64,000 nucleotides of DNA from Candidatus Krumholzibacteriia bacterium (GTDB taxonomy: Bacteria; Krumholzibacteriota; Krumholzibacteriia; JAJRXK01), in contig JBGPIA010000008.1 in NCBI GenBank assembly GCA_041484665.1, positions 96,001 through 160,000 on the forward strand. Reading direction: 5' to 3'. The notes under the pieces were generated by a model. The model was not told the origin of the DNA and did no database searches. It was given only the letters and a program-made list of their open reading frames with translations. Shown here piece by piece: positions 33,639 through 57,692 of this stretch. Every line of letters begins with the position of its first letter. Within the stretch, counting starts at the first letter, position 1. Made by a program: the position numbers and the translations under genes.

Positions 33639-34277
33639 TCAGTGCTCCCCGGGCGGGTGCCCGCCCGCCGACGGCGCTGCGGCCGGCGCGCCGTCCGCGG
33701 CGATCGCCTGCTCGATCCGCGCGCGCTGGGACTGCGGCAGCAGACCCAGCTCCACGTGCTGGCTGAGCTGCAGCACGCGCAGGTACGCCACGATCGCCCA
33801 GCGGTCCTGCGGATGCACCTGGCTGGCGTAACCGGACATCTCGCCGAAGCCGTTGGTGATGACGTCGAAGATGTAGCCGGGGCGCGCTCCGCGCAGCCGG
33901 TCGATGTGGAAGGACGGCGGCTGCTTGAACCCGCGACGCACGATCATGCCGCGGCCGCCCCCGGTACGGTCGTGGCACGGCGAGCAAAAGATCTCGTAGC
34001 GTTCCCGCCCGCGCGCGAGCAGCTCGGCGGTCGCGGGCACGGGCAGCGTCGTGGTGAACTTGCCGTCGTTGCCAAGGCCCGCGTAGAGAGTCCGGTCTTC
34101 ACGCAGGAAGCCGCGGGGAACGGTCCCCGGGGGCAGCGGCCGCGCCGACGCTCCGTCCGCATAGAAATCGCTCGACGAATACGCCTTGTGCTTGGGCTGG
34201 TCCTTCATGTCGCGCGTGCAGCCCACCAACGCCAGCAGCCCCCCGACCAGCACGACCGCCGCCCGCTCAGTCCTCAA
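33639..34277 (-). CDS. actE: alternative complex III monoheme cytochrome c lipoprotein
   Basis: Lipobox LVGC, DMKDQPK, CSPCH, DRWAIVAY. Confidence 0.9.
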   Translation of the reverse strand: MRTERAAVVLVGGLLALVGCTRDMKDQPKHKAYSSSDFYADGASARPLPPGTVPRGFLREDRTLYAGLGNDGKFTTTLPVPATAELLARGRERYEIFCSPCHDRTGGGRGMIVRRGFKQPPSFHIDRLRGARPGYIFDVITNGFGEMSGYASQVHPQDRWAIVAYLRVLQLSQHVELGLLPQSQRARIEQAIAADGAPAAAPSAGGHPPGEH

Positions 34278-34824
34278 CGTCGGACACCTCCATCGCAGCG
34301 AGCCCCAGCAGCTGCTCGCGGGTGCCGGCGCGATCGAAGCGTGGGTCGCACGCGTCGACGAACAGGAAGTAGCTGTCGCGCGACGCCAGGGCGAAGCGGG
34401 GCACGTTGAAGAGCGGGTGGTGCGGCCGGGGCAGCCCGTTGAGCGCCAGCATCCCCAGCACGGCCGCAAAGGCCGCGAACAGGATCGTCGTCTCGAAGGT
34501 CACCACGATGAAGGAGGGCCAGCTGTCGTACGGGCGGCCGCCGATGTTCATCGGGTAGGCCTTCACCGCGGTCCAGTACTGCAGGGTGAATCCGCAGATT
34601 GCGCCCACCACCCCACCCCCAAACACGAGCCAGGGCAGGCGCGAGTGGTGCGACTCCACGATTTGGGAGAGCTCCTCCACTGGGTAGGGTGTGAAGGCGT
34701 CGAAGCGGCGGAACCCCGCGCCGCGCACCGCGGACGCGGCGCTCACCAGCTCCGCCTCCGTGCGGAACTCCGCCAGCAGCCCCACGAAGCGCGCGGGCCC
34801 GCTCTGACCCGTCGCGGCGGTCAC
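34267..34824 (-). CDS. actD: alternative complex III subunit D (DUF3341)
   Basis: DAFTPYP, NIGGRP, FETTIL. Confidence 0.9.
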   Translation of the reverse strand: MTAATGQSGPARFVGLLAEFRTEAELVSAASAVRGAGFRRFDAFTPYPVEELSQIVESHHSRLPWLVFGGGVVGAICGFTLQYWTAVKAYPMNIGGRPYDSWPSFIVVTFETTILFAAFAAVLGMLALNGLPRPHHPLFNVPRFALASRDSYFLFVDACDPRFDRAGTREQLLGLAAMEVSDVED

Positions 34825-36227
34825 CGCGGTTCCTCCGGCGGCTTGGAGGCGGGCAGGATCATGCGCATCTCGAAGATGGAGATCATGGGCAAGAACCGGA
34901 TGAACAGGAACATCAGGGAGAGGAACAGGCCGATCGTCCCGAAGAAGGTCATGAAGTCGAAGCGCGTGGGATGGTACATGCCCCACGACGACGGCAGGAA
35001 GTCGCGGTGGAGGCTGGTGACGATGATCACGAAGCGCTCCAGCCACATTCCGACGTTCACGAACATGGCGATGATGAACAACGCCGTGACGGAATTGCGC
35101 ACGCGCCGCGACCAGAGCAGCTGAACCACCAGCACGTTGCACAGGATCAGCGCGTACCACGTATAGCGGTACGGGCCGGTGACGCGGTTGAGGATCATGA
35201 ACCGCTCGTAGCGGTTTCCGCTGTACCACGCCATGAAGATCTCGACGGCGTAGCCATAGGCCACGATCAGGCCGGTGGCCAGCATCACCTTGGCCATGTT
35301 CTGCAGGTGGCGCATGGTGATGAAATCCTGCAGCCCGAACAACACGCGCAGCGGAACGGACAGGGTGATTACCATGGCGAATCCGGCGAAGATGGCCCCG
35401 GCGACGAAGTAGGGCGGGAAGATCGTGGCATGCCAGCCGGGGACTTGGGCTGCGGCGAAATCGAAGCTCACCACCGTGTGCACCGAGACCACCAGTGGCG
35501 TGGCCAGCCCCGCCAGCATCAGCGACGCCATCTCGTAGTTGTGCCAGTGGCGCGCCGAGCCCCGCCAGCCCATGGCCAAGAAGCCGTACAGCTTCTGCGC
35601 GAGGAGGCTCTGGGCGCGGTCGCGCAGCGTGGCCAGATCGGGGATCAGCCCCACGAACCAGAACAGGAGCGACACCAGCGCGTACGTCGAGACTGCGAAT
35701 ACGTCCCACATGAGCGGGCTGCGGAACTGCGGCCACAGCCCGAAGGTGTTGGGGATGGGCAACAGGTAGTAGAAGCGCCATGCCCGCCCCATGTGGATGA
35801 GCGGGAAGAGCCCCGCGCACGCCACTGCGAACAGCGTCATGGCCTCGGCAAAACGATTGATGGAGTTGCGCCACGGCTGACGCAGCAGCAGCAGGATCGC
35901 CGAAATCAAGGTGCCCGCGTGCCCGATCCCGATCCACCACACGAAGTTGATGATGTCGAACGCCCAGCCCACCGGGATGTTGTTCCCCCAGATCCCGATG
36001 CCCTTGGCGAACAGCATGGTCAGCGAGTAGAGCAGCATCATCAGGATGGCGAACGATCCGCCGAACGCGGCGTACCACCACTTCGGCGTCCCGGTCAGGA
36101 CCACCGCCGAGATCTTGTCGGTGACCGTGGCCGCGGTGTGCCCCGGCGCCATCAATGGAGGCCGAGTCGGCGGGGCGGGACGGGCTGGGTTGGGCCGGGC
36201 TGGGCCGGGAGCCGGGATCTCCGCCAC
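34821..36227 (-). CDS. actC: alternative complex III NrfD-family quinol-binding subunit
   Basis: NFVWWIGIGHAGTLISA, SPLMWDVFAVSTY, GWHATIFPPYFVAGA. Confidence 0.95.
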   Translation of the reverse strand: MAEIPAPGPARPNPARPAPPTRPPLMAPGHTAATVTDKISAVVLTGTPKWWYAAFGGSFAILMMLLYSLTMLFAKGIGIWGNNIPVGWAFDIINFVWWIGIGHAGTLISAILLLLRQPWRNSINRFAEAMTLFAVACAGLFPLIHMGRAWRFYYLLPIPNTFGLWPQFRSPLMWDVFAVSTYALVSLLFWFVGLIPDLATLRDRAQSLLAQKLYGFLAMGWRGSARHWHNYEMASLMLAGLATPLVVSVHTVVSFDFAAAQVPGWHATIFPPYFVAGAIFAGFAMVITLSVPLRVLFGLQDFITMRHLQNMAKVMLATGLIVAYGYAVEIFMAWYSGNRYERFMILNRVTGPYRYTWYALILCNVLVVQLLWSRRVRNSVTALFIIAMFVNVGMWLERFVIIVTSLHRDFLPSSWGMYHPTRFDFMTFFGTIGLFLSLMFLFIRFLPMISIFEMRMILPASKPPEEPR

Positions 36228-39200
36228 TAGCCTCCCTCCAGCTCGGGGTTGGGATTGCGCAGCTTCGCCAGGTAGGTCGTCCGCGGCCGCGTGCCCAACT
36301 CGGTCAGCAGCCCGTAGTTGAGCGGCGTGGCCTTCCAGCGCGTGACCTCCGACTGCGTGTCGTTGATATCTCCGAAGACGATGGCCTGCGTCGGGCACGC
36401 CTGCTGACAGGCGGTCACGATCTCGCCGTCCTGGATCGGGCGGCCTTGCGTCTTGGCGTTGATGCGCGCGACGTTGATGCGCTGCACGCAGTAGGTGCAC
36501 TTCTCCATGATGCCGCGCATGCGCACGGTCACGTCGGGGTTGCGCTGCATCTTGAGCGTCTCGCTGCGGCGGTCGTTGTACTCCAGGAAGTTGAAACGGC
36601 GGACCTTGTAGGGGCAGTTGTTGCTGCAGTACCGCGTCCCAACGCAGCGGTTGTAGGTCATATCGTTGAGCCCCTCGGCGCTGTGCGACGTGGCGGCGAC
36701 GGGGCAGACCGGCTCGCAGGGCGCCTGCTCGCAGTGCATGCACATCACGGGCTGGTGCAGCGCCGAGGCCTCGTCCAGGCCGCCCTCGAAATAGCGGTCG
36801 ATGCGGATCCAGTGCATCTCGCGCCCCTTGTGCACCTGCTCCTTGCCCACGATCGGGATGTTGTTCTCGGCCTGGCAGGCCACCACGCAGGCATTGCAGC
36901 CGATGCAGGCCGTGAGGTCGATGGCCAGCCCCCAGGCGTGGCCCTCGTACTTGAAGCCCGGGTACAAGGAGAGGTTCTCCTGGGCCCGGTCGGCGTCACG
37001 GGCGAAGTCGGGGTTGGACTGGTACTGGGCGAGCGTCCCGACGCGCACCAGCTCGCGCCCCTCCATGCTGTGGTGCTCCTGCGTGCAGGCCAGAGGATAG
37101 CGGCGCCCCAGCGGCGTCACGGCGATCCCCGCGGCGATCCACGGGGCCCCGGCAGTGCGCAGCGCATACGCGTTGAAGCCGCAGCCGTTGCCCACCCGCC
37201 CGGCGCGGGTGCGCCCGTAGCCCAGGTGGAGCGTGATGGCGCCATCGGCTTGCCCGGGCAGCACCCAGACGGCCACGGCCAGCCGGCGCTCGCCGCTGCG
37301 CAGCTCCACCAGGTCCTCGTTGGCGACGCCCAGCCGCTGCGCGGTCGCGGGGCTCAGCAGCGCCGCGTTGTCCCAGGTGAGCTTGGTCAGAGGCTTGGGG
37401 CACTCCTGCAGCCACCCGTTGTTCGCGTGGCGTCCGTCGTGGACAGTGGGATCGGGCCGGAAGATCAGCGCCAGGCCCGCACCCAGCGCCGCAGAGTCCG
37501 AGAGCCTTGCTACGGCCTGCGCGATCCCGGCCGACTGCACCGCCGCGGCGCGGGGCAGAAGCGCCGTCCCGGCGAGCACGCCATCGTGGACTGCCTTGCG
37601 CCAGAACGACTCGAAGTCGGCCGTGGCTCGCGGCTGTGCCCGCCAGTGCTCGCGCACCAGGTCATAGTCCGTCGCATCCGGGCGCTCCAGCAGACAAGCG
37701 AGGACGCCGTGCGCGGAGCGGCCGTCGTAGAGCGGCTCGATCAGCGGCTGCACGATCGTGACCGTGCCGTCGAAGGCCCGCGCGTCGCTCCAGCTCTCCA
37801 GCGCGTGCGTCTCGGGCAGGTGCCAGTGGCAGTAGTCGGACGTCTCGTTCTGGTGGAGCCCCAGGTGCACGCGCAGCGGGACCTTCTGCATCGCCGTGGT
37901 GAAGTCCAGATCGACGGGCGCGTCGTACACGGGGTTGCCCCCCAGCACCACCAGCAGGTCGATCTTTCCCCCCGCCATCTCCGCCACGAGACGTTGTAGG
38001 GAGTCCAGCTGGTCCTCGGGCTGGGCCTCGACCGCATCGGTGAGCAGCACCGTGGCGCCCAGATTGCCCAGCGCCGCGTTCATGGCGTGGGCCAGCGCGT
38101 GCAGCTCTGGCGGCGCATGCTCGCCGGCCACCACCACGCTGGCGCCGCGATGGGCCGCCAGATCGCGGGCGATCACGGCGGCCTTGGCCGACAGCGGCGG
38201 CGGCAGATCGGGCGGCGCAGCGGCGCCTGCCACCCCCAGCTGGGCGGCCAGCGCCAGGACGAAGCCGTCCAGCTGGGCGGGCGCGAGCGCGAGCCGATGG
38301 TCGGCCACCGTGCCCGAGCTGGTGGGCGTGCTCTCGACGCAGTAGAGGCGGCTCATCGCAGCGCCAGCGACCCGCGCGCGCCGCGTCGACATGAAGTCCC
38401 GCGCGTAGCGCACGGCGGCCGGTCCCTCACACATGAAGTCCGCGTCGAGGGCGACCACCACGCGGGCCCGGGTGAAGTCGTAGCGCGCGTCGGTCCAGTC
38501 GCCAAACGCCATTCTGGCGCCCACGCGCGCGCCGTGACGGCCGGCCGGCTCGTACTGGTGCCAGCGCGCCTTCGGATAGCGCGCGAGCAGCTCGCGGATT
38601 TGCGCCGCCAAGGTCGGCGAGGTGATGGTGGTGGTCAGCAGGCGCAGACCGGCGCCCTGCAGCCCCTTCTGTGCGGTCAGGGCGCCCGCAAGCTCGGCCA
38701 GGAACGTCGTCCACGAGCGGATCTCGCCGAGGGAGGTGGGCGTCTTTGAGCGATCGGGATCGTAGAGCGTCAGCACCGACGCCTGCGCGAACAGGTCGGT
38801 CGAGCCCAGGCTCGCCGGATGATCGGGATTGCCCTCGACCTTGGTGGGCCGCCCTAGGTGGCTCTCCACGAGCACGCCCATCGCGTAGCCGCCGGCCGGT
38901 ACCGCGGTGGCGAAGTAGAGCGGCTTGCCGGGGATGATCTCCTCGGGCTGCTTGACGTAGGGAACGATCTTCTCCAGCGGCTGGCGCGCGCAGGCCGCGA
39001 GCCCGGCCAGCGCGAACGAGGCACCCATCAACTGCAGGAAGCGCCGCCGCGAGAAATCCGCCTCCATGCCGACTGGCAACAGCGACGGGAACTCGCGCTG
39101 AACCAGCTCCTGGAACTGCTCGGTCTGCGCCAGCTCGTCGAGGCTGCGCCAGTAGGCAGGGCCCTGTTGCGCCGCCAGACGCTCGCGCACGGCGGACAGA

Positions 39201-39385
39201 TCGAGGCGGCGCGGCGCATCGGTGTCGGCGGGCAGGCACGTCGGCGGACCGGTCGGGGGGCCGGTCGGCGGACTGGCCGGGGCGCCGGTCGGCAGGCCGG
39301 CGGACCCGCTACCGGCCGGGCTCTCGGGCGGGCGCAGCGGGTCGTGCTGATGATGCTGCAGTGCGGCCTCGCCGAGCGGCTCCAC
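36227..39385 (-). CDS. actB: alternative complex III subunit B (molybdopterin-oxidoreductase-like plus Fe-S domain, TAT-variant signal)
   Basis: YWRSLDEL...SRRRFL...[32 protein letters not shown]. Confidence 0.95.
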
Positions 39386-39394
39386 GGCGTCCTC

Positions 39395-40045
39395 CTAGCG
39401 GTGGCAGGTCGAGCAGTAGGTGAGGCTCTGGATCTGGTACTCCTGCACCAACTCGCGCCCCAACTCCTCCTGCGCCCGCGGGGGCTGCCAGCCCATGGTG
39501 AAGATCTGCGAGCGCGGCCGGACGTAACGCTCGGGATGACGGTGGCAGTCGACACACCACTCCATCTGCAGCGAGCTCGCCTGCTGCATGAGGGGCATCT
39601 TGTCCACGCGGCCGTGGCACGTCTCGCAACCGATCCCCTTGGCAACGTGGATACTGTGGTTGAAGTAGACGAAGGCCGGCAGATCGTGAACGCGCGTCCA
39701 GCGGATCGGGAGGTTTGCGCGCAGGCTCTGGCGCACCGGCTCCAGCATCGGACTGTCGGACCAGATCTGCTTGTGGCAGTTCATGCAGGTCGCCGTAGGC
39801 GGGATCCCCGCGAAACTCGACTCCTCGACCGAGGTGTGGCAGTAGCGGCAGTCGATTCCCAGGCCGGCCGTGTGGTGGTCGTGGCTGAAGGGCACGGGTT
39901 GCTGCAGGATGACGGTGCGGCCGGTCGCATAGGACGACCGGCTCAGCTGGGCGAACACCCAAGCGACCGCGGCAAGGACGAACACAGCACCATAGATGGT
40001 GAACCGCGAGATCGCGTTGGTACTGCGATGGAAGATCTGGGCCAT
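39395..40045 (-). CDS. actA: alternative complex III pentaheme cytochrome c
   Basis: Five CxxCH motifs (CRYCH, CMNCH, CETCH, CVDCH, CSTCH) and QPVPFSH. Confidence 0.95.
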   Translation of the reverse strand: MAQIFHRSTNAISRFTIYGAVFVLAAVAWVFAQLSRSSYATGRTVILQQPVPFSHDHHTAGLGIDCRYCHTSVEESSFAGIPPTATCMNCHKQIWSDSPMLEPVRQSLRANLPIRWTRVHDLPAFVYFNHSIHVAKGIGCETCHGRVDKMPLMQQASSLQMEWCVDCHRHPERYVRPRSQIFTMGWQPPRAQEELGRELVQEYQIQSLTYCSTCHR

Positions 40046-43000: not shown

Positions 43001-44392
43001 CTAGCGATCGTACCCGTGCTTGACCTCGCCCCAGCTCTTGGTCGCGTCAGGCACCGGGCAATTGACGCCCAGCGTACAACGTGGCCCGCTCGTGCAGACT
43101 GCAGAGCTCGTGCAGCCGATCGCGCTTGACGTGCAGATTGTCGCCGTCGTGCACACTCCGCCGGTGCAGTTGGCTCCTGCCGTACACCCCGGCCCGGCCG
43201 TGCACGCGAACGGAGCGGCTGTGCAGCCCGCGCCGACCGTGCAAGCGTTCGGACCCTGTGTACATGCGATGCCGAGGGTGCAACCCGCGCCCAGCGTGCA
43301 GGCCTGGGGACCCTGCGTGCAGGTGGGGCCGCCCGTGCAGCCACCGCCGAAGGTGCAGCCCGGTCCGTTCGTGCAGACGTTGCCGGCCGTGCAGCCCGCC
43401 GCGCCCGCCGTGCAGGTCGCGCCGTTCGTGCAGGCGGGTACGCCAGCCGTGCAACCCGCGCCCAGCGTGCAGGCCTGGGGACCCTGCGTGCAGGTGGGGC
43501 CGCCCGTGCAGCCAAGGCCGAAGGTGCAGGCCGGTCCGTTCGTGCAGACGTTGCCGAACGTGCAGCCCGCCGCGCCCGCCGTGCAGCCCGCGCCGTTCGT
43601 GCAGGCCGGTACGCCTGCCGTGCAGCCCGGACCGGACGTGCAGGCCGTCGGATCGAAGGTGCAGTGACCGCCGCCGGTGCAACCCGCGCCCTGGGTGCAG
43701 CCTGCCGCCCCGGCCGCGCCGGATGTGCAGAATGCGCCCCTCGTGCACGCGTCCGGACCGGAAGTGCAGCCAGGGCCCTGCGTGCAGGTCGTGCCGACCG
43801 TACACGCGTGGGGACCGAACGTGCAGTTGTCACTCGAGGTGCAGTTGGTGCAGTTGGTGCAGACCCCGGACGTGCAGCGGTCGCCTGCCGTACAGGCCGC
43901 AGGCCCCGCCGTGCAGTTCGCGCCCATCGTGCACCACGCGCCCGTGGTGCAGCTGGGGCCGTCCGTGCAGACGGGAGACTGAGTGCAGTAGACGCCCTGC
44001 GTACAGCCCGAGCCCTGCGTGCAGGTCGCTCCACCCGTGCAAAGTGACTGCGCCGTGCAGTCGGGAGTCACGGTGCAGATACTCTGCGTGCATTCCGCCC
44101 CCACAGTGCAGTCTTGCGCAAGGGTGCAGTCAGGGCCCTGCGTTTGCTCGTTTGACTTGTCGACGCCGGCCTGCGGTGGGCCGGTCAGGAACGGGTCGCC
44201 GACCTTCCAGACCTTGCCGGCCATCCCGTTGGCGGAGAGATCGATGATGTGCGTGAACAGCGGCGACGCTTCCGCGTCGGTGGCCTGCACCCGCAGACCG
44301 TGCTGGACCGCCACGTAACCGACCGCCCCCACCGCGAGCAGGAGCAGGCACAGGATCCGGGTACATCGGCCGACCTTGAACGTTGTCCTCAT
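43001..44392 (-). CDS. secreted Cys-Thr hexapeptide-repeat protein with SWGEVK C-terminal motif
   Basis: Sec-type signal, ~50-aa non-repetitive segment, 58 CT-initiated units of mostly 6-7 aa, then CPVPDATKSWGEVKHGYDR. GGGGGTGA RBS before ATG 44392 (alternative ATG 44428). Confidence 0.9.
   Translation of the reverse strand: MRTTFKVGRCTRILCLLLLAVGAVGYVAVQHGLRVQATDAEASPLFTHIIDLSANGMAGKVWKVGDPFLTGPPQAGVDKSNEQTQGPDCTLAQDCTVGAECTQSICTVTPDCTAQSLCTGGATCTQGSGCTQGVYCTQSPVCTDGPSCTTGAWCTMGANCTAGPAACTAGDRCTSGVCTNCTNCTSSDNCTFGPHACTVGTTCTQGPGCTSGPDACTRGAFCTSGAAGAAGCTQGAGCTGGGHCTFDPTACTSGPGCTAGVPACTNGAGCTAGAAGCTFGNVCTNGPACTFGLGCTGGPTCTQGPQACTLGAGCTAGVPACTNGATCTAGAAGCTAGNVCTNGPGCTFGGGCTGGPTCTQGPQACTLGAGCTLGIACTQGPNACTVGAGCTAAPFACTAGPGCTAGANCTGGVCTTATICTSSAIGCTSSAVCTSGPRCTLGVNCPVPDATKSWGEVKHGYDR
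43278..43622. repeat. 171-bp (57-codon) tandem duplication inside the Cys-Thr repeat gene
   Basis: The same ~65-bp string begins at 43278 and 43449; protein units 29-37 are repeated as units 38-46. Confidence 0.9.
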
Positions 44393-44525
44393 GACGATAG
44401 AGTCACCCCCCCAGAGATTTGCCCTCATGGGCTTCTGGTTGAGAGAGCTGCAAAAGCACGTCCTGACGAGCGCCGGGCACCAAGGGGGCAGGACGCGCGG
44501 CTGGGACGTGCCCGCAGCATACCTG

Positions 44526-44539: not shown

Positions 44540-44715
44540 TCTCTTGGCCTCGGGCGCGATATAGGGAAAACTCTGATGCGGCCACGACGTCGCAGAAGTT
44601 GTTCAGGGACAGCGGGCGGCAGCGGCGCGGGGAGCGATGGGCGCCCGACCCGCGCCCCGGGGACCCCCGGGGCGGCTTGCATCTGCCGGTCCCTTGTGCT
44701 CTGCTCAGGCGCAGC

Positions 44716-47391
44716 ATGCATCCCTTCCTCATCGCTGCTTGCGTCCTGCTCGCCGCTGCCTGCCAGGAGCGCGCGCTCGGTCTCAACGGTCAGGCGCCCA
44801 ATACCTTGCTTGGACTGGTCGCGCTGGTTCTCGCCCTGGTCGCGCTGGTCGGGCCTGCGCCCTCCCCTGCGGAGCCCGGCGGGGGGGCTGCCGCTTCGCC
44901 CGCCCGGCCCACCGCCCAGCCCACGATCGGGCGCCGCGTTTGGGCTGGCGGCATCGCCGGCACTGCCCTGATGCTGTTGGGGCTCATCGCCTGGATTGGC
45001 GGAGTTCGCATCGCGCAGCCGTTCGCCCTGGCTGTGGCATTGGGCGGGGCGGTTCTGGTGCAGCGCCCGGGCGGCTCGCACCAGCGGCTCGCGGGCGCCC
45101 TGCTCGGCTTCGCCCTGCTGCATGCCACCTGCGTGACCGTGCGGGACCACCTCCCGCTCTGGTGGCTGTACGAGCGCGCGAGCGTCGGATTCAGCGGCGC
45201 TGTTTCGGAGCTCAGCGGCCGCCGGCTGGCCCTGGGTCCCCAGTACGCGGGGACGCATCTGGGCGTGATCGCCGGCGTCTACGCAGCGGCGCATCTGCTC
45301 GGTGCCCGGCAGCGGCGCTGGATGTGGGCCGTGCTCGTGCTCGCTCTGCTCCCGCTGGCGGTGGCCCTGCACGTGGCGCTGGGCACGATCGCCTGGTGGT
45401 GGCCGTGGGCGGCCCAGCAGCCGCTGCTGGACGGCGTCGACGCTCCCATCATCCTGTTCGGATTGCTGCTGCTGCCGATTGGATTGCTGTGGCGAACCCA
45501 ACCGCTCGCGCCGCGCGGGGGTGGCCCGCGGGTACGGTCGCAGCCAGGGTCGCAGCCGGACTCTCAGCCCCCGTCGCAGCCACGGTCGCAGCCGGGGTCT
45601 CTGGCCGCCCGCAGGCCGTGGCTCGCCGCGGGCGTGGGCCTCACTCTGCTGGTGCTGGGGATCATCCTCGCCACCTGGGAGCGCGCCGTCCCGGCCGCGC
45701 ACGGCCGGGTCACGATCTGCACGCGTGGCACCTGGTCGACGAAGCTTCCGGTCTGGGGCCTCTACGGCAGCCAGGCGACGACCGGTGCGAACGCCTCTGC
45801 TCTCCCGTTGCTGCTGCAGGACGCCGGCTTCACGGTGGCTCTCCACGACACCGTGATCGATGACGCGCTGCTGCAGGGCACCGACGTGCTGTTCTTCATG
45901 GACCTGGGCGAGAAGCTGGACCCGGCCGAGCGGCAGGCCATCTGGCGGTTCGTCGAGCGCGGCGGCGGACTGCTGGTGCTGGGCGACCACACGGACATCC
46001 AGGGTGTGATGCACCCGACCAACGAGCTGCTGGAGCCCGTGGGAGTCCGCCTGAAGTTCGACTCGGCGATCCCGTTCGTGCCGCGCTGGACCTGGTACAA
46101 CGCCATGCGCCTGCACCCGCATCCAGCGTTGCGCGGCTTGCGCGACGAGAGCGACGTGAAGGTGAGCGTGGGCGCGTCGCTGCAGGCGCCGCCCGGGGCG
46201 CGGCCGCTCCTGACCGGCCGCCTCGCGTTCAGCGACGCGGGCAACCTGTACAACGCCCGGGGCGCCTATCTGGGGAACATGCAGTACGACGCCGGCGAGC
46301 GCACCGGGGACATCCTGCTTGCCGTAGAGGCGCGCTATGGACGCGGCAAGGTGGTGGTGTTCGGTGACACGTCTTCCTTCCAGGTCACCTCGTCCCCCAA
46401 TACCGTGCAGATGGTGTGCGGGCTGTTCCAGTACCTGGCCGATCCGCGCGGCCACGGCCCCGGCGCCGGCCGTCGTCTGGCCGGGAGCCTGCTGCTCGTT
46501 GCCGGCGCGCTCCTGCTGGTGGCCAGCGGCGAGCTGCTGCCGGCCGCTCTGGCCGCGGCCGCGGTGGCCGGTTGGCTGGCCCTGGCCGCCACCGACGCGC
46601 ACGGACGGGTCGACGCGCCGCGTCCCACGCACGGCGCGCTCGCCTACCTCGACCTGGCGCATGGCAACCGCGTCGACCTGCACGCCGGCCAGGTCAACGG
46701 CATCAACGGCCTGCTCCTCACTCTGATGCGAGCCGGTTTGCTGCCGCAGGGGCACAAGGACTTCGATCCGAGCGCCCTGCAACGTGCGGAGCTGGCCGTG
46801 GTGGATGCGCCCGCCTTCTCGTTCTCGGCCGGCGAGATCCGCGCCCTGCACCACTACGTTGAGCAGGGTGGCAATCTGATCGTGTCGGTCGGCTGGGAGG
46901 AGCGCAACGGTGCCCAGGCACTCTTGTCCAGCTTCGGCTACGCCATCGGGCGTACGCCCATCGGCGCCGCCCACGACGCGATCTGCAGCATCGACCGCCA
47001 TTACGCCAACATGCACGAGTCGTGGCCGGTGGAGCGCCCCGCGGCGCGCGGCGAGGTGCTCGTCAGCTCATGGAACTACCCGCTGATCGTGCTCGAGGCG
47101 ATCGGCAAGGGTCACTTGCTGGTCATCGGAGACTCATTCTTCCTGCTGGACGGCAACCTCGAGAGCAGCGAGTCGTTCAACGCCAACAACATCCTGTTCG
47201 TGCGCGCGGTGCTCGAGCGCATGCTTGGGCGGGAGCTGGGGCCGCCTGAGGAGCCGTCCCACCGTTCCGTGCGGATCGCGCCGCGGACGGCAGACCAGCC
47301 CGCGCAACCCGCGGCAGCCGGCGCCGGCGACACTCCAGCACGGCACGATCCGGTCACGCCACCACGGCGCTCGCACGGAGGGACCCCGTGA
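44716..47391 (+). CDS. polytopic membrane protein with two GldG/GIFT(DUF4350)-like extracytoplasmic domains (paralog A)
   Basis: About 9 TM segments; TDVLFF...FVERGGGLLVLGDHT...GKVVVFGDTS; 2 TM segments; LDLAHGN...YVEQGGNLIV...GKGHLLVIGDS. Confidence 0.8.
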   Translation: MHPFLIAACVLLAAACQERALGLNGQAPNTLLGLVALVLALVALVGPAPSPAEPGGGAAASPARPTAQPTIGRRVWAGGIAGTALMLLGLIAWIGGVRIAQPFALAVALGGAVLVQRPGGSHQRLAGALLGFALLHATCVTVRDHLPLWWLYERASVGFSGAVSELSGRRLALGPQYAGTHLGVIAGVYAAAHLLGARQRRWMWAVLVLALLPLAVALHVALGTIAWWWPWAAQQPLLDGVDAPIILFGLLLLPIGLLWRTQPLAPRGGGPRVRSQPGSQPDSQPPSQPRSQPGSLAARRPWLAAGVGLTLLVLGIILATWERAVPAAHGRVTICTRGTWSTKLPVWGLYGSQATTGANASALPLLLQDAGFTVALHDTVIDDALLQGTDVLFFMDLGEKLDPAERQAIWRFVERGGGLLVLGDHTDIQGVMHPTNELLEPVGVRLKFDSAIPFVPRWTWYNAMRLHPHPALRGLRDESDVKVSVGASLQAPPGARPLLTGRLAFSDAGNLYNARGAYLGNMQYDAGERTGDILLAVEARYGRGKVVVFGDTSSFQVTSSPNTVQMVCGLFQYLADPRGHGPGAGRRLAGSLLLVAGALLLVASGELLPAALAAAAVAGWLALAATDAHGRVDAPRPTHGALAYLDLAHGNRVDLHAGQVNGINGLLLTLMRAGLLPQGHKDFDPSALQRAELAVVDAPAFSFSAGEIRALHHYVEQGGNLIVSVGWEERNGAQALLSSFGYAIGRTPIGAAHDAICSIDRHYANMHESWPVERPAARGEVLVSSWNYPLIVLEAIGKGHLLVIGDSFFLLDGNLESSESFNANNILFVRAVLERMLGRELGPPEEPSHRSVRIAPRTADQPAQPAAAGAGDTPARHDPVTPPRRSHGGTP
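45538..45597. repeat. 5 x 12-bp in-frame tandem repeat (SQPx)
   Basis: TCGCAGCCAGGG TCGCAGCCGGAC TCTCAGCCCCCG TCGCAGCCACGG TCGCAGCCGGGG. Confidence 0.85.
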
Positions 47392-50135
47392 CGCTGCTCT
47401 GGCTCGCCGCACTACTGGTTGCCGTGGGCTGGGTGGAGCTCTTGCCCACCGTCGGAGCGCCACGCACGTCGCTGGGCGTGGTGGAAATCGTGTGCGCTGC
47501 GGCTGCCACGGGCGTCGCGCTGCGGCGCGTGCGCGTGCGTCTGCGGGCTCGGACGCGCCTGCTGCTGATCGCGGCCGGGATCGCGGCCATCGCCGTGCTC
47601 CCCTTCCCCTATGGCCTGGGGCTGTTCCTGGTGGCCCTGGCCAGCGGGCTGCTTTGGCTGCCAGCGCCGCGGCCGCCCGCGCTGCTGCAAGGCGCGATCG
47701 CGGCGCTGGGAGGCGTCGGGCTCGCGCTGGCCGTCCTGGGAGCGCTCAGCCCCGTCTACTTCCTGGTGGCCGCCCGCGTCCACGAGCTGGGACCGCTCAC
47801 CTATCCGGTGAGCTGGGCGCTGCGGCTGCTGGCGCAGCACGCCAGCGCGGATCCACCGTTCGTGCACCTGGGGGCGGTCGGCGGAGTCGTGACCTTCGAC
47901 GTGAGCCTGGAGAAGCTGGGCGGCTACCCGCTGTTGTGCTTCGTGGCCGTCGCCGCGTTGCTGGTTTTCCTGGCCGGAGGGCGCCGCTCGTGGAGCGCGC
48001 TGTTCGCCCTGCTCGGGCTGGGAGCGATCTACGGGCTGCTGCGCCTGCTGCTGCTGTCGCTGCTGCAGCAGGGAGGCGAAATCCCCGAGATCTACTACAA
48101 CCGCGTCTGGGACTGCGGAGGGCTGGCCGTGCTCTGCGGCTTCTGCGTGCTCGCGCTCGTCGTGCGCGGGGGCGCCGTGGTGGATGCGCAGACGGTGGGT
48201 GAGCAGGGAGCGCCGGCAGCCTCGGGCGGACCGGCCGCCGCGGCGAGGCGTCCGGATCGCGAGCTCACGTTGGCGCTGTTATCGGCCGCCCTGGCGCTGG
48301 CCGTGGTCGGCGCCTACGGCTACCAGGACCCTGGCCATCCGAAGCGCGGCCGCGTCATGATCGATGAGGCCCACTCCAACTGGGAGTGGAGCACGATTGC
48401 ACTGGATACCGAGTCCTACGGTGTGCAGACGGTCTACAACTACTCGGAAATGATGCGCTACTTCGGCCATTACTACGAGGACATCACCAACTTCGACAGT
48501 CTCACGACCGACGTGCTGGCCAAGACGGACGTGCTGATCCTCAAGACCCCCACGCGTCCCTACGCGGAGGCCGAGGTCGACGCCATCGTGCGCTTCGTCG
48601 AGCAAGGCGGCGGTCTGTGGTTGGTGGGCGACCACACGAACATCTTCGGGATGAGCAGCAACCTCAATCGCGTCGCGCGGCGCTTCGGCATGCGCTACAA
48701 CTACAATGCGGTGGTTGACCTGCTGACGCGCGGCCGCCAGCTCTATCTGCACCCGCGCCTGCTGGCGCATCCCGCCGTGATCAACATGCCGCCGCTGCTG
48801 CTGGCGACCTCCTGCAGCATGCAGGCGCCACTGAGCAGCCGCGACGTGATGATCGGGCAGTCCCTGCTCGCCGATCAGCTCGACTACTCGCAGAACACGT
48901 TCTTCGGCAACTTCGCCCCCGACCCGTTCGAGCCGTTCGGCACGATCCTGCAATCGGCGGCGACGACGCGCGGGAAGGGACGCGTGCTGCTGTTCAGCGA
49001 CAGCACGGTTTTCAGCAACTTCTTCATGTTCATCCAGGGCAAGGCGGAGCTGGCGCTGGGCAGCGTGGCGTGGCTGATGCGGGAGAACCACACCACCTGG
49101 GTGCCGCCCTTCCTGGCCGCGTGCGCGTTGCTGTTGGCCATCGCGGCGGCGACGCTCGCGGCACGCTTGAACCGCCTGCGCGCGCTAACGGCCGCGCTGG
49201 GTCCGGGAGCGCTCGCGTTCATCGTGGGCGCGCTGCTGCTCACCGCCCAGACCAAGCGCGCCTACCCCCTGCCCTCGCCCCACCAGGAGCCGCCGTGGAT
49301 CGCCTTCGAGCGGGGGCACTGCTCCTACGGGCTGCCCGAGACCCATGAGATCCCCGACAACTCGGCGGAGAGCCATCAGACCTTCTACGTGTGGACGGGG
49401 CGCGTAGGCTACATGCCGTTCACGGCACCGCTGGCGCAGTGCCTGCAGCGGGCGCGGATCCTCGTGCTGGTCAACCCACGCGATCCGTTCGATACAGCCA
49501 GCCGCGACGCAATCGAGCGGTTCGTGCGGGACGGGGGCCGCCTCCTGGTGTTCGACTCCCCGCATGTCGGGCAGGTGCAGATCCGCGAGCACGGTCAAGA
49601 GCGTAGCGCAACCATCGGGACGACGGCCAATGACCTGTTGCCCGCCTTTGGGATCCGCATGCTCGGGGCCGAGGTCGACTCGGTGGTGGCGATCAGCACC
49701 GCGACCAAGGACTCGGTGACCATGCTCTACCACGTGGGCGCGCTGGAGGGCGGCACACCGTTGCTGACTCGTCCCGACGGAACCCCGATCCTCGTGGTGG
49801 CCGATCACGGCCGGGGAAAGGTCGCGGCCATCTGCGCCTCGGACAGCTTCACCGACGCGGTGCTGGGCACCACGTCGCAAATCCCCTCGCCGGAGCAGCT
49901 CGCGCTCTATCGGATCGAGTTCTCGCTGCTGGACGACGTGCTGCGCCCGCCAGACGTGCCGCGCCCGGTGCGCACGCCACCGCCAGTGCGGCCGTCCTCG
50001 TCCGCGCGTACGTCGTTCGCGCCGGCTGGCGCGCCGGCTGGCGCGCCAGCCGCCACGCCCGGCACCACGCCCACCCCCGTCCCGTCCGGGCCCAACGCGC
50101 CTGCAGCGCGGATCCCCGCCCAGACACCACGGTAG
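47388..50135 (+). CDS. polytopic membrane protein with exosortase-like segment and two GldG/GIFT(DUF4350)-like domains (paralog B)
   Basis: GTGA overlap with paralog A; IDEAHSNWE...TDVLILKTP...FVEQGGGLWLVGDHT...GKGRVLLFSDS; 2 TM segments; FERGH...FVRDGGRLLV...GRGKV. Confidence 0.8.
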   Translation: MTLLWLAALLVAVGWVELLPTVGAPRTSLGVVEIVCAAAATGVALRRVRVRLRARTRLLLIAAGIAAIAVLPFPYGLGLFLVALASGLLWLPAPRPPALLQGAIAALGGVGLALAVLGALSPVYFLVAARVHELGPLTYPVSWALRLLAQHASADPPFVHLGAVGGVVTFDVSLEKLGGYPLLCFVAVAALLVFLAGGRRSWSALFALLGLGAIYGLLRLLLLSLLQQGGEIPEIYYNRVWDCGGLAVLCGFCVLALVVRGGAVVDAQTVGEQGAPAASGGPAAAARRPDRELTLALLSAALALAVVGAYGYQDPGHPKRGRVMIDEAHSNWEWSTIALDTESYGVQTVYNYSEMMRYFGHYYEDITNFDSLTTDVLAKTDVLILKTPTRPYAEAEVDAIVRFVEQGGGLWLVGDHTNIFGMSSNLNRVARRFGMRYNYNAVVDLLTRGRQLYLHPRLLAHPAVINMPPLLLATSCSMQAPLSSRDVMIGQSLLADQLDYSQNTFFGNFAPDPFEPFGTILQSAATTRGKGRVLLFSDSTVFSNFFMFIQGKAELALGSVAWLMRENHTTWVPPFLAACALLLAIAAATLAARLNRLRALTAALGPGALAFIVGALLLTAQTKRAYPLPSPHQEPPWIAFERGHCSYGLPETHEIPDNSAESHQTFYVWTGRVGYMPFTAPLAQCLQRARILVLVNPRDPFDTASRDAIERFVRDGGRLLVFDSPHVGQVQIREHGQERSATIGTTANDLLPAFGIRMLGAEVDSVVAISTATKDSVTMLYHVGALEGGTPLLTRPDGTPILVVADHGRGKVAAICASDSFTDAVLGTTSQIPSPEQLALYRIEFSLLDDVLRPPDVPRPVRTPPPVRPSSSARTSFAPAGAPAGAPAATPGTTPTPVPSGPNAPAARIPAQTPR

Positions 50136-51958
50136 GGCAGCGCGCCCTGCAGCGGCCCCGCGCCGGCAACGGCGCGCTCGATCAGCATGCGCCATGCACG
50201 GCGCGCATCGCGCAGGGCACAGGCCGCCTCGGCCGCGGTGGCGGGCAGGACCGCGATGGTGCGGCTGCGATGGTAGCAACCGTCGCCGAACGCGGCGCCC
50301 ATCGGCCAGCACAGCGCGCCCGGCGCGCAGCTCCAGTGCCGCGGTACTCCCCAGGCACGCTCGTCCTGCGGCAGGATCACGCGCAGCGCCACGTCGATCG
50401 ACGCGTCCCAGGGTGTGGCCGTGAGGCCCCGGCCGGTGGACTCCACACGCGTCCAGCGCCCGGGCGCCAGCCGCGCCTCCACCACGAAGTGCTCCTGCGT
50501 TGCCGCGTCCACGGGAATTACGGAAAGCAGCCGCGCCGGGATGCCCCGGGCGCGCAGCAGCGCTGCGAGCAGGTTGGCGTGACCGGTGCAGACGCCGAAG
50601 CCGCGCCGCAGCGTCGAGAGCGCATCCTGATTGCCCAGCGGCCGGATCGCGATCGCGCAGCGCTTGAAGGACTCGGCGGCGCGCGCGACGGTCGCCGGCG
50701 GGGCCCCCGCCGGCGCCAGCGATCGCGCCGCGGCAACGATCTCCGGCGCGCCGGACTGGATCGCGGGCGAGGGCGCGCTCCAGCAGGCGTCGTCGTCCAG
50801 CGGGAGGTCAGCCGGCAGGATCGGCGCCCCCTGCGCCAGCACGACCTGCTCCTCCCAGTACACAAAGAGCAGAGTGTCCTGCGGCTCGGTCGAGAGCTCC
50901 ACGTGCACGGAAGCGTTGCCGCGCTCCTCGAGCAGCCGGAACGAGAGGATGCGGTCCGCGGGCTGTGTGCGCAGCGCCAGCCGCAGAGGCGCTTGGTGTT
51001 GCTCGATGGGAGGAACGGCGAATCGCAGCCATGATCGGCCCGCGGACGACGCCGGGCGCAGCACGTACGCGCCCTCGGCGAGAACGATTTGCAGCCGCGC
51101 CTGGGGCGCTGACCGAATCGCCGCGCCCACCGACTCATCCGCTGCCTCGCCCGGCTCCGCCCGCGGCGCGCGCGCTACGGCGTCCGGTCCAGCGGACCGG
51201 CCGTAGGGATCGAGCCGCCAGGGCGGGCCCGCCACATCGCTCGCACGCGCGAGCTGCAGCGCGCGAAAGCTGGCCGCGCCGGAGCCGTAGAGCCCAGCGC
51301 GCACCAGCACGGTCTGTGTCCCAGCGGGGAGGACCAGCGAGCGCTCGAAACGGCGCCACGGCTGCGTGCCGCCCAGGTCGCCGGCGGCGCGTAGCGGGAA
51401 GCGCGCCAGCTCGCGATCCTGGGCGAAGCACTGCAGCACGACGTTGGCGGCGACCGCTTCAGCCGTCGCCATCCAGCCGCCCAGCAGCAGGCGATCGCCC
51501 GCGCGCACACCCTCCACCCGCTGTGTCCAGGAGCGGAGGTAGCCCTGATCCGGCCGGGCAACGACGATGCTGGCGACGCCGTCCTCGATCGCGAAGCGTG
51601 CCCGCGGCGCGCGGCGGGGCTCGGCAGCCGCCTGCGCCGGCGCCACCCGGCCCAAGTCGGCAAGCGCGCGCGTGTGCGTCGCGCCAACCGAGTCAGCGGC
51701 CGCGGGCCCCGGCGGCACGCGCTGCGAATCGGCGGGCGCGACCGCGCGCGAGCGACCCACCGCGCGCCAGGCGATGGGTTGGCCCTGCTCCAGCTGCGTG
51801 AAGTCACCGTTGCGCAGCAGGTTCTGTGGCGCGCGCGCCCACGACGCAGGGGCCGCCGCGCACGACCCGGTGCGGGATCTCCCGACGGGCGGCGCGCCAG
51901 GCGCCGCACACGACGCCACGCACGCGAGCGCCACCGCTGCAATCCGCCCAGCGCTCAC
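49907..51958 (-). CDS. transglutaminase-like domain lipoprotein with N-terminal CBM-like jelly-roll
   Basis: VASC lipobox; NLLRNGDF...W; GVCTGHANLLAALLRARGIPAR...H..VEA...W..VEST. Confidence 0.8.
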   Translation of the reverse strand: MSAGRIAAVALACVASCAAPGAPPVGRSRTGSCAAAPASWARAPQNLLRNGDFTQLEQGQPIAWRAVGRSRAVAPADSQRVPPGPAAADSVGATHTRALADLGRVAPAQAAAEPRRAPRARFAIEDGVASIVVARPDQGYLRSWTQRVEGVRAGDRLLLGGWMATAEAVAANVVLQCFAQDRELARFPLRAAGDLGGTQPWRRFERSLVLPAGTQTVLVRAGLYGSGAASFRALQLARASDVAGPPWRLDPYGRSAGPDAVARAPRAEPGEAADESVGAAIRSAPQARLQIVLAEGAYVLRPASSAGRSWLRFAVPPIEQHQAPLRLALRTQPADRILSFRLLEERGNASVHVELSTEPQDTLLFVYWEEQVVLAQGAPILPADLPLDDDACWSAPSPAIQSGAPEIVAAARSLAPAGAPPATVARAAESFKRCAIAIRPLGNQDALSTLRRGFGVCTGHANLLAALLRARGIPARLLSVIPVDAATQEHFVVEARLAPGRWTRVESTGRGLTATPWDASIDVALRVILPQDERAWGVPRHWSCAPGALCWPMGAAFGDGCYHRSRTIAVLPATAAEAACALRDARRAWRMLIERAVAGAGPLQGALPYRGVWAGIRAAGALGPDGTGVGVVPGVAAGAPAGAPAGANDVRADEDGRTGGGVRTGRGTSGGRSTSSSSENSIR

Positions 51959-53085
51959 GGCGTGATCCCGTGGTCCTTCAGCCACCCCTGCCACAGCGCG
52001 CGCACGGAGTCAGGGACCGCGGCCCGAGCCGCCCCGCTCCGGCGCGCCAGCGCGGACCAGGGCGCCGCGCCCACGGGCAGGCTGTCGCAGGGGCTGCGGA
52101 CGAGCAAGGGCTGCAGCCCGTCCTGCGAGGTGAGTGCGCCAGGATCGGCCTCGCAGTTGCCGTCGACCTCGATCGCCGGCGGTTTGCATGCGCCGCCCGC
52201 GGCACCGCCTTCGTTCTGCCACACGAGATTGCGGTGCAGCACCGCCGGCTTCTGCTCTCCAAGCAGGTAGACGGCGGCGCCCTTGCGGCTGCGGGCGATC
52301 ACGTTGTCCCGGATCAGCGCCGGCGAATCGTCCAGGTAGATTCCGCCGCCGCTGCTGGTGGCCGCGTTGCCGATCATCGTGTTGCCGATGATCACCGGAG
52401 TCGAGACGTGCGCCAGGACCGCCCCGCCCGACACGGCGTCGTTGTCGACGATGAGGTTGTTGTAGACGAGCGGCGCGCACCGCGCGTAGGCGGCCACGGC
52501 TCCGCCCAGGTATCCCTCGGCGCGCCGCATCACGTTGCAGGCGATCACCGCGTTGCTGCCATGGTTCATGTACACGCAGGGGCCCAGGTAGCCCAGGTGG
52601 TCCTGGATGATATTGAAAACCACGAGGGGGCTGGAGCCCTCCAGATAGATGCCGCCGCCGCCCGAGTTGGGGTGGTCCCGGCGGCCGTGCTGGAGCGTGA
52701 AGCCCTGGATGAGGGTGGAGGCGTCGAGCTGCTGGCCGAACAGCACGTAGCGATCTCCCGCCGCATCGAGGATGGTCGAGTCAGCGCCGGAGGCGCTCAT
52801 CAGCGCGACACCTGACTTGAGCGTGACCGTCTTCTCATAGCGCCCCAGTCCCACCAAAACCGTATCGCCCGCGGCAGCGGCCGCCATCGCCGTCTGGATG
52901 GTCGGTGCCGCGTTCCGCCATGTCGCAAACGGGGGAGCGCCGTGACCGTCGGGGCGCACGTGCAGCACAGCCGCCGCCGCGACACCCGCGCACAGCGACG
53001 CCGCAACGACGAGCGGGAGCAACCGGACACGCAGCACCAACGACCGGTGCCGGATCGCCGCGAGCGGGACCTGTAGACGCTTCAT
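51955..53085 (-). CDS. secreted right-handed parallel beta-helix repeat protein
   Basis: Signal peptide; TIQTA...GDTVLV..G.Y; IQGFTL; repeated GGGIY/GGAV...N.I..N. Confidence 0.85.
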   Translation of the reverse strand: MKRLQVPLAAIRHRSLVLRVRLLPLVVAASLCAGVAAAAVLHVRPDGHGAPPFATWRNAAPTIQTAMAAAAAGDTVLVGLGRYEKTVTLKSGVALMSASGADSTILDAAGDRYVLFGQQLDASTLIQGFTLQHGRRDHPNSGGGGIYLEGSSPLVVFNIIQDHLGYLGPCVYMNHGSNAVIACNVMRRAEGYLGGAVAAYARCAPLVYNNLIVDNDAVSGGAVLAHVSTPVIIGNTMIGNAATSSGGGIYLDDSPALIRDNVIARSRKGAAVYLLGEQKPAVLHRNLVWQNEGGAAGGACKPPAIEVDGNCEADPGALTSQDGLQPLLVRSPCDSLPVGAAPWSALARRSGAARAAVPDSVRALWQGWLKDHGITP

Positions 53086-57479: not shown

Positions 57480-57692
57480 GCGACTCCCGGTCGCTTCCAG
57501 ACGGCGCGCAAACATGGGAAACCCCGCACGCCGCGCGGCGTGGGGGGCGCAGGACCAGGCGAGTAGTGTAGCCGAGCGGGCGGCGCGATGGAAGGGTGGC
57601 GCGTTGAGCGTCACGCTCCAAGGCTCCGACACCAGGATTCCGCCATCGCACCGCCGCGCTCACATCGGGTCGGGGATTCGCATCTCCCAGCA

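Follow-up and report, generated by a model that had tools for sequence, protein, structure and literature searches.

A threonine-cysteine repeat protein with a conserved leader and a pair of membrane GIFT proteins: a candidate module for extracytoplasmic protein maturation in diverse bacteria

The genome of a Candidatus Krumholzibacteriia bacterium encodes a protein of 463 amino acids built largely from short units that each combine one threonine and one cysteine. Patterns of sequence conservation and gene neighbourhood indicate that this protein is very probably a precursor and the substrate of two membrane proteins, A and B, encoded next to it, which would process it outside the membrane under the direction of a conserved leader. 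The most far-reaching reading, to which we assign a probability of roughly one in three, is that A and B together constitute an extracytoplasmic, ATP-free lanthionine-type synthase of a new fold, which would draw on a membrane-derived activating group and install tens to more than 100 Thr-Cys thioether rings on Sec-exported, surface-anchored proteins as a reduction-proof replacement for disulfides, in more than 10 bacterial phyla and in one or more genomes labelled as archaeal. The precursor, its leader, A and B are covered by none of the curated families. A literature search, with supplements and most subscription papers outside its scope, returned no description of the module, no paper joining DUF4350 with the term cysteine-rich, none of the Thr-Cys or Cys-Thr repeat phrases and no account of Krumholzibacteriota with a cysteine-rich secreted protein. 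All coordinates refer to the window, that is, the whole stretch of 64,000 nucleotides that was analysed (contig JBGPIA010000008.1, positions 96,001 to 160,000).

Results

The precursor gene occupies positions 43001..44392 of the minus strand, with the start placed at the ATG at 44392 and with homologs of the same layout; an alternative upstream ATG at 44428 is possible. The N-terminus is basic and continues into a hydrophobic helix at residues 11-37, recognizable in the sequence and present also in the otherwise unreliable structure model, so that residues 1-37 (44282..44392, minus strand) are a putative signal peptide or signal anchor. A conserved leader motif follows at residues 43-57 (44222..44266, minus strand), composed of SPLF and a predicted amphipathic helix. 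The core extends from Thr84 to Cys445 (43058..44143, minus strand) in the register T-x-G-x-x-C; it opens with TQGPD-C and its closing cysteine is followed by proline. Between Cys89 (nucleotide 44128) and Cys445 (nucleotide 43060) there are 59 cysteines, 58 of which directly precede threonine and the final one proline, exactly as counted in a preliminary description of this DNA. That description had located the array at 43050..44130, where it does lie, but the N-terminal helix and the C-terminal tail of the same protein fall outside these coordinates. It was also right that glycine occupies the +3 position in most units (45 of 59) and that charged residues are almost absent (Asp, Glu, Lys and Arg make up 11 of the 357 core residues). 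The spacing that it gave, mostly six residues and sometimes seven, fits 39 and 13 of the 58 intervals, respectively, but spacings of five (three times), three (twice) and ten (once) occur as well. The 58 CT dipeptides compare with at most 21 in 10,000 composition-keeping shuffles.

A pattern scan of the 5.45-Mb genome identified this as the sole coding array of its kind, the remaining four matches looking like shadow frames. The plus-strand frames that run across the repeat (VQ-rich and CR/CS-rich) were likewise rejected as shadows because the signal helix, the leader and the homologs belong to the minus frame. In pieces, the array is also present on contigs from four other sediment runs, with 0 differing letters; none of them covers it whole, and one bridges the junction of a 171-nt duplication within it. 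This recent tandem duplication (43278..43619, minus strand) comprises 57 codons and nine units and is 95% identical, the copies differing by two silent and four changed codons, with the unit threonines and cysteines untouched. The protein ends in an SWGxxKxxY tail (43004..43036, minus strand) common to 31 other open reading frames of the genome; the pattern [ST]WGxxK ends 32 reading frames, the precursor included, and is probably a lineage-wide sorting signal. A promoter or terminator consensus was looked for and none was found.

The preliminary description had likened the array to beetle antifreeze proteins and proposed a disulfide-braced, ice-binding beta-helix. The Tenebrio protein TmAFP (PDB 1EZG, PF02420) is indeed also a secreted, threonine-rich repeat of small residues with a cysteine about every six positions, and excerpts of PMC8038014 give the beetle consensus as TCTxSxNCxxAx, each coil having a C2-C8 disulfide. 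Unlike TmAFP, the repeat protein does not have this consensus, its cysteines are all alike and odd in number, it is five times longer, and it comes with a conserved leader and dedicated membrane partners. The beetle unit TCTxSxxC occurs in it 0 times (TCT, five times), and there is no 12-residue alternation of odd and even cysteines, the two sets having like surroundings. Sequence searches with the repeat protein yielded 0 families in Pfam, no match in NCBIfam or the ESM Atlas and 0 chains among PDB sequences at E 10. The AlphaFold model is unreliable (pLDDT 46.6). TmAFP is its top structural row (residues 98-170, Z 2.7, rmsd 3.6, 68 aligned), at noise level, and the Foldseek comparison that had been envisaged returned no row. 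A precomputed PF02420 label is attached to three homologs and was not reproduced at E 0.01. We also considered the left-handed hexapeptide beta-helix (PF00132), in which Leu, Ile or Val precedes Gly in each hexapeptide; this is the case in 10 of 59 units here, compared to 46 of 79 in short leaderless CT proteins, and the protein does not follow the pattern. The core may nevertheless have a solenoid-like shape of some other kind.

The notion that the repeat protein is a bacterial copy of a beetle antifreeze protein is thus not supported. In a broader form, the protein would be a stand-alone disulfide-braced beta-helix presenting threonine ladders to ice or another regular surface, with neighbours that are incidental or serve export only. 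The predominant six-residue spacing, the TmAFP row for the model and the three precomputed labels are compatible with this explanation. We nevertheless regard it as very improbable, given that the diagnostic unit and the 12-residue alternation are both missing and the labels irreproducible, that the same leader and the same A/B pair serve T-x7-C cores, whose units of 11-15 residues make such a helix impossible, that threonine is substituted by serine rather than valine, and that neither DsbB nor VKOR was found in the genome. Another suggestion of the preliminary description, namely a very large precursor that is modified after translation and has a leader (ASPLF...QGPD), is the one that we favour: across phyla the SPLF leader is conserved, and it is found together with the membrane pair.

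Eighteen homologs share the order of signal region, HIxxLSxxGM motif and CT core, and most of them end in a C-terminal anchor; HIxxLSxxGM after SPLF is the CT-class form of the leader. The Ser and Pro of SPLF are at least 90% conserved among 43 leaders, and a profile made from 33 leader sequences matches only the precursor among 55,669 frames of its own genome. Secreted Cys-repeat proteins encoded beside A and B have this leader in common and differ in their cores, which are of CT, TC, TxC or T-x7-C type; in one genome, a Ser-type core lies directly upstream of its own A/B pair. The best 150 proteins from a search with a CT profile include 138 new ones, 13 of them leader-bearing CT proteins, and 84 long matches without leader, which we take to resemble the myxobacterial CDDGNxCT type and which were set aside from the family counts. 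Precursor C-termini comprise T9SS tails, dockerins, cell-wall repeats, membrane helices and TWGxxK, and precursors are present in both monoderm and diderm hosts; with such a diversity of anchors and envelopes, A and B are unlikely to export or anchor the precursors.

Protein A (44716..47391, plus strand, probable start ATG 44716) is a predicted polytopic membrane protein with two GIFT/DUF4350 domains; its longest open reading frame begins at 44599, and the protein contains a DHT motif. Protein B (47388..50135, plus strand) has 915 amino acids, about 11 predicted membrane helices and two soluble domains, GIFT1 and GIFT2. The two proteins are paralogs, each with Pfam matches to DUF4350/GIFT in two domains, and the precursor gene is transcribed divergently from the pair. 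In the model of B (pLDDT 93.1), both soluble domains adopt the GIFT fold, their closest neighbour being IFT52 (Z 22.0, rmsd 2.4, 207 aligned; Foldseek E 8.7e-9), followed by site-1 protease (Z 19.3) and OST48 of oligosaccharyltransferase (Z 18.5). Judged from hydropathy and the charge of its loops, B would have about 11 helices and expose both GIFT domains on the outside, one loop being ambiguous. A weak similarity of the pair to GldG lies far below the cut-off for that family. Known GIFT proteins (GldG, IFT52, OST48/Wbp1, the site-1 protease domain; DUF4350, PF23355, PF09822) thus share the fold of B and the Pfam matches of A and B, but the latter differ from them in the fusion of two GIFT domains to about 11 membrane helices, in forming a paralog pair and in a strongly conserved polar pocket. 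Across 85 sequences, 37 polar or aromatic residues in GIFT1 of B (approximately residues 312-570) are conserved at a level of at least 85%, with K386, H416, T417, R532, D538, S539, T540, S543 and N544 invariant, as opposed to two such residues in GIFT2.

In the membrane part of B, Arg219 is kept in 82 of 85 sequences, and H132 and E175 are common. With this part as query, the ESM Atlas lists exosortase clusters at 0.80-0.81; profile comparison did not reach significance (hhalign P 0.057, with uninformative HMM ranks), none of 24 members has a Pfam match there, and the fold searches of B, which matched the GIFT domains alone, barely probed the membrane part. The exosortase/archaeosortase family (PF09721) offers a possible fold for it and likewise has a conserved membrane arginine, but the Cys-Arg-His triad described for that family in part of bioRxiv 10.1101/2023.06.07.544157 is not matched in B, which has no conserved membrane cysteine and no histidine after Arg219. 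The kinship is only a lead. Archaeosortase ArtA has been tied to lipid transfer in a speculative model outlined in excerpts of PMC7157517, and is a loose precedent for lipid-linked chemistry in an exosortase-like membrane fold. Two other enzymatic identities were rejected. A disulfide catalyst of the DsbB/VKOR type is not indicated, as a CxxC is found in just five of the 85 sequences of B and two of the 49 of A and is not conserved. Class I glutamine amidotransferases have an invariant nucleophilic cysteine; the sole cysteine columns of B are 66% and 84% conserved, and A has none. A further gene of the window, for a predicted secreted parallel beta-helix protein (51955..53085, minus strand), is an accessory of some CT-class loci only: it occurs near loci G139, L050 and L051 and was not seen at L053 and L058.

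GTDB genomes contain 395 places with a confirmed relative of B, and the analysis was carried out on the best 80 of these 395. The titles of these 80 loci name Chloroflexota, Planctomycetota, Lentisphaerota, Verrucomicrobia, Thermodesulfobacteriota, Bacillota, Bacteroidota, Acidobacteriota, Latescibacterota, Eisenbacteria and archaea, with the proviso that bin labels may err; locus L084 is labelled Desulfatirhabdium butyrativorans. In all 62 loci that have both genes, A lies upstream of B on the same strand. A leader together with at least six cysteines is encoded at 42 of the best 80 loci, 13 of which are outside the training set of the profile, and the addition of four loci found by core alone brings the secreted Cys-repeat protein to 46 of 80. 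Where at least 3 kb is available on both sides, a precursor is present at 33 of 44 loci; the 11 well-flanked loci of the same set with no precursor nearby count against the linkage. Of 34 genomes with no precursor near A/B, 10 were searched and 7 encode one elsewhere. Among the top 40 neighbour clusters, judged by eye, no third family recurs beside A and B across phyla.

A survey of 208 genomes of the phylum detected B in at least 14, 12 of which carry a leader with a Thr/Cys core. The other 194 genomes gave two clear leader matches, one followed by a core (G007, 71% complete) and one in frames that end before the core (G037, 84% complete), as well as six weak matches with no Cys core. Three CT proteins on metagenome contigs (L133, L145, L166) are accompanied by neither A nor B in the 2-7 kb available around them, which argues against linkage. 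A pattern scan of metagenome DNA gave at least 119 stretches, mostly shadow frames of unrelated tandem repeats; among the matches listed, four are true family members with flanks and one of these is accompanied by B. Dominated as it is by shadow frames, the scan does not amount to a fair reverse test of the linkage. Finally, in a quick tree of B GIFT1 (67 rows, with core classes labelled by the analyst and related rows sharing labels), core class clusters across phyla: a branch with a support of 90, not starred, sets the four CT loci of three lineages apart, and the TxC loci lie inside one branch with support of 100, the TC and T-x7-C loci being scattered.

The composition of the cores follows a simple grammar. 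In 62 cores, a set partly picked for threonine near cysteine and including kin that are not independent, the median Thr/Cys ratio is 1.16, and 94% of the Cys-Cys intervals contain a threonine, compared to 73% after shuffling; 9 of 11 proteins found by leader only have threonine in at least 83% of their intervals. In the CT class, where the unit threonine is at +1, it is present at 634 of 683 interior cysteines and at 2 of 21 last cysteines; in the TC class (-1), the corresponding values are 736 of 833 and 0 of 26. Matching each cysteine to a threonine, with four possibly cut proteins dropped, works better with the upstream than with the downstream threonine in 44 proteins and worse in three, with 11 ties. 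In six T-x7-C cores, the threonine is fixed at -8 (107 of 111 in one example) and the spacing varies from 10 to 15. The difference between interior and last cysteines and the fixed T-x7-C distance lead us to conclude that a unit opens with threonine and closes with cysteine. In the protein described here, Thr84 (TQGPD-C) therefore opens the array, which then consists of 59 Thr-Cys units, and the odd number of cysteines is accounted for. Such rules for the ends of arrays could also stem from solenoid capping.

The 13 new leader-bearing CT proteins conform to the same polarity, with the unit threonine at 287 of 327 interior cysteines, at 1 of 13 last cysteines and, in 12 of 13 proteins, before the first cysteine; five short CT proteins that have no leader match break it, threonine following the last cysteine in three of the five. 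Where the key position of the CT class is not threonine, it is serine in 24 of 34 cases (background 13%) and valine once, and serine again dominates the substitutions in the 13 new proteins; neither the TC class (15 of 72, not significant) nor the T-x7-C class (0 of 23) shows this preference. From threonine to the next cysteine, the distance in our protein is 5 in 39 units, 6 in 13, 4 in three, 2 in two and 9 in one; the constant distance in the CT class is that from cysteine to threonine (+1), not that from threonine to the next cysteine. The stretch CTNCTNC is too tight for rings between next neighbours. Both observations go against thioethers. Cysteine parity among the precursors (29 even, 31 odd) is uninformative because other exported proteins of the genome show no even bias. 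As to disulfide formation, DsbB and VKOR were not found in the genome, which is 93.65% complete, nor in any of five carrier genomes including this one (0 of 5 for each), these genomes being incomplete; control searches were positive in both cases.

Discussion

What has been observed is the array, its leader, the linkage to A and B, the ratio and polarity of threonine and cysteine, the preference for serine as substitute and the GIFT fold. We infer the export, topology and binding of the module, as well as all of its chemistry. The repeat protein would be exported by way of its signal peptide, as its sequence implies, and the helix of the SPLF leader may dock on the complex of A and B on the outer surface of the cytoplasmic membrane, as co-conservation implies. 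The complex would then move along the core unit by unit, each consisting of a threonine or serine and a cysteine 5-9 residues downstream, and would join the two with loss of water into a beta-thioether ring similar to methyllanthionine, 59 of which would form here. More speculatively, the possibly exosortase-like membrane part might hold a membrane-borne donor that activates the threonine hydroxyl, and the activated hydroxyl might be eliminated or displaced in the conserved GIFT1 pocket. The product would be a rigid rod on the cell surface, resistant to reduction and fixed by the anchor that the particular host employs: the SWGxxK tail in this case, and in other hosts a T9SS tail, a dockerin, cell-wall repeats or a membrane helix. 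A beta-thioether is proposed because it is the simplest chemistry that uses each hydroxyl and each thiol once and in order; that A and B in fact make Thr-Cys thioether rings is possible, at somewhat less than even odds. We know of no enzyme of the GIFT fold that makes thioethers and of no energy source that would be available to A and B outside the cytoplasm, and both considerations count against the thioether reading.

A close analogy is to the lanthipeptides (LanA with LanB/LanC, LanM or LanKC), in which a conserved leader likewise precedes a variable core with many Thr/Ser and Cys residues, and in which, according to portions of PMC13692751, beta-thioethers arise from cysteine and dehydrated serine or threonine. 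The precursors differ from these in having a signal peptide before the leader, 8 to more than 100 units and surface anchors, and in the nature of the candidate enzymes, which are membrane GIFT proteins that probably face outward. No LanB/LanC-type family was seen by eye among the recurring neighbours of A/B, and the LanC and LanB profiles PF05147 and PF04738 have no match in the genome, but their controls matched nowhere either. Cys-rich proteins encoded beside their maturase are also known from CrpA/CrpC of Methanococcus voltae and from QhpC/QhpD, where, as stated in the same portions of PMC13692751, radical SAM enzymes introduce multiple thioethers. Unlike the radical SAM/SPASM enzymes CrpC and QhpD, A and B have no conserved Cys motif, and no such maturase was noticed by eye among families present in at least 3 of 81 loci, whose neighbours were partly scanned against Pfam. 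Known enzymatic thioether rings, as far as those portions of PMC13692751 extend, are the work of Lan or radical SAM enzymes in the cytoplasm, and most of the substrates are short peptides. The RiPP CefA (NF038108) has a cysteine at every fifth position; the Ser-type core scores 16.8 bits with this model, short of the cut-off of 30, and the repeat protein has no match to it.

The alternative that deserves the most attention, doubtful as it is, holds that A and B are a leader-directed transferase that decorates threonine and serine with a glycan, phosphate or acyl group from a lipid-linked donor, the downstream cysteine being an element of recognition or folding with no Thr-Cys bond, and the cysteines being free, paired in disulfides or modified on their own. 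The GIFT domains whose structures are known are either non-catalytic or, as parts of PMC7226087 propose, bind sugar or a lipid-linked oligosaccharide. Such a sugar-binding precedent fits glycosylation better than thioethers, and the nearest structural neighbours of the B domains, namely IFT52, site-1 protease and OST48, accord with it. The preference for a hydroxyl at the key position is in keeping with decoration too, as is the placement of threonine in the TC class, since eukaryotic O-fucose sites have threonine immediately preceding cysteine. What decoration leaves unexplained is why the arrays open with a threonine that has no cysteine and close with a cysteine that has no threonine, and why the ratio is near 1:1 in CT and T-x7-C cores alike. 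In addition, no glycosyltransferase or sugar-pathway family recurs by eye beside A/B across phyla, and neither DsbB nor VKOR was found that could oxidise dozens of cysteines.

It is also conceivable, if unlikely, that the core stays unmodified and binds a metal or mineral (Fe, Zn, Cu or FeS, in anoxic sediment) through thiolate and hydroxyl, with A and B acting as a folding or metal-loading factor, much as GldG stands beside an ABC transporter. Many carriers among the best 80 of 395 B loci are labelled as anaerobe groups, free thiols would be expected where DsbB and VKOR are lacking, the weak resemblance to GldG points the same way, and the cysteine and hydroxyl of each unit are a possible ligand pair. 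Threonine is, however, generally a poor metal ligand, the core is nearly devoid of His, Asp and Glu, no transporter family recurs beside the module by eye, and the 37 residues kept in GIFT1 of B are what an enzyme pocket would be expected to retain. The readings predict different masses for the mature protein: a loss of about 1063 Da for 59 dehydrations, a loss of about 58 Da for 29 disulfides, and a gain for adducts.

If A and B do process dozens of Thr-Cys units on exported proteins under the guidance of a portable leader, this minimal three-gene module of precursor, A and B would represent a new class of protein maturation and provide the first catalytic role for a GIFT domain. It would also hint at how anaerobes that have neither DsbB nor VKOR stabilise surface proteins that are very rich in cysteine. 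Even under the rival explanations, the module would be a previously undescribed, leader-directed system for modification of the cell envelope.

Membrane genes A and B and locus layout

In the fetched DNA of nine loci that carry B (L065, L068, L069, L087, L089, L119, L121, L123 and L105), no gene was found for A, its paralogous partner with two GIFT domains, and at several of them a precursor of the secreted Cys-repeat type is encoded nearby or elsewhere. Such loci could mean that B is the core subunit, or else that A is unlinked. Since the CT-class gene (repeat Cys mostly followed by Thr) and the gene for the secreted parallel beta-helix protein lie together downstream of B in genome G139 and at loci L050 and L051, the layout of the window is a rearranged one. 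The CT gene of L050 (13254-14697, reverse strand; P0002) is split into two frames with the break in mid-array, probably through an assembly slip.

In the window, a transglutaminase-like gene (PF01841; 49907-51994, reverse strand) lies between B and the beta-helix gene; it was not seen at related loci. A radical SAM gene with a CxxxCxxC motif (56400-57632, reverse strand), judged by eye to be presumably of the RlmN/Cfr RNA methyltransferase type, is 6 kb from B and is no recurring neighbour. Genes for a multiheme cytochrome, molybdopterin/Fe-S and NrfD-type membrane proteins (34267-40045, reverse strand) form what we take, again by eye, to be an alternative complex III operon.

Leaders and repeat cores

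Genome G217 has a second, diverged A/B pair, and immediately upstream of it is a Ser-type precursor gene (L312, 8126-8653, reverse strand), whose product has the SPLF leader followed by a CxGSx core with Cys at every fifth residue; its match to CefA (NF038108) is weak and under the cut-off. SPLF-like leaders also occur beside A/B without a Cys core, in a TPR protein (L128, 5108-6106, forward strand; a weak leader match) and in a 216-aa frame (L109, 2185-2835, forward strand) that may be shifted.

Leader-bearing CT-class proteins (metagenome contigs L133, L145 and L166; P0007 and P0012) have neither A nor B within 2-7 kb. They are probably of Armatimonadota origin; P0012 carries the name Fimbriimonadales. 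Two secreted proteins whose CT and CS units alternate (P0072, P0075), for which the leader search gave no match, possibly constitute a further class. Separate from these is a group of short, leaderless proteins with runs of CTLGxx or CSLGxx hexapeptides (P0104, P0108, P0130, P0097; L184, L194, L217, L230), possibly left-handed beta-helix proteins of phages.

C-terminal tail

The precursor of the window ends in the motif [ST]WGxxKxxY (43004-43036, reverse strand), as do 31 other ORFs of its genome (32 in all) and many precursors across the phylum. No NCBIfam model matches this tail; it appears to be a lineage-wide sorting signal of a kind not described before.
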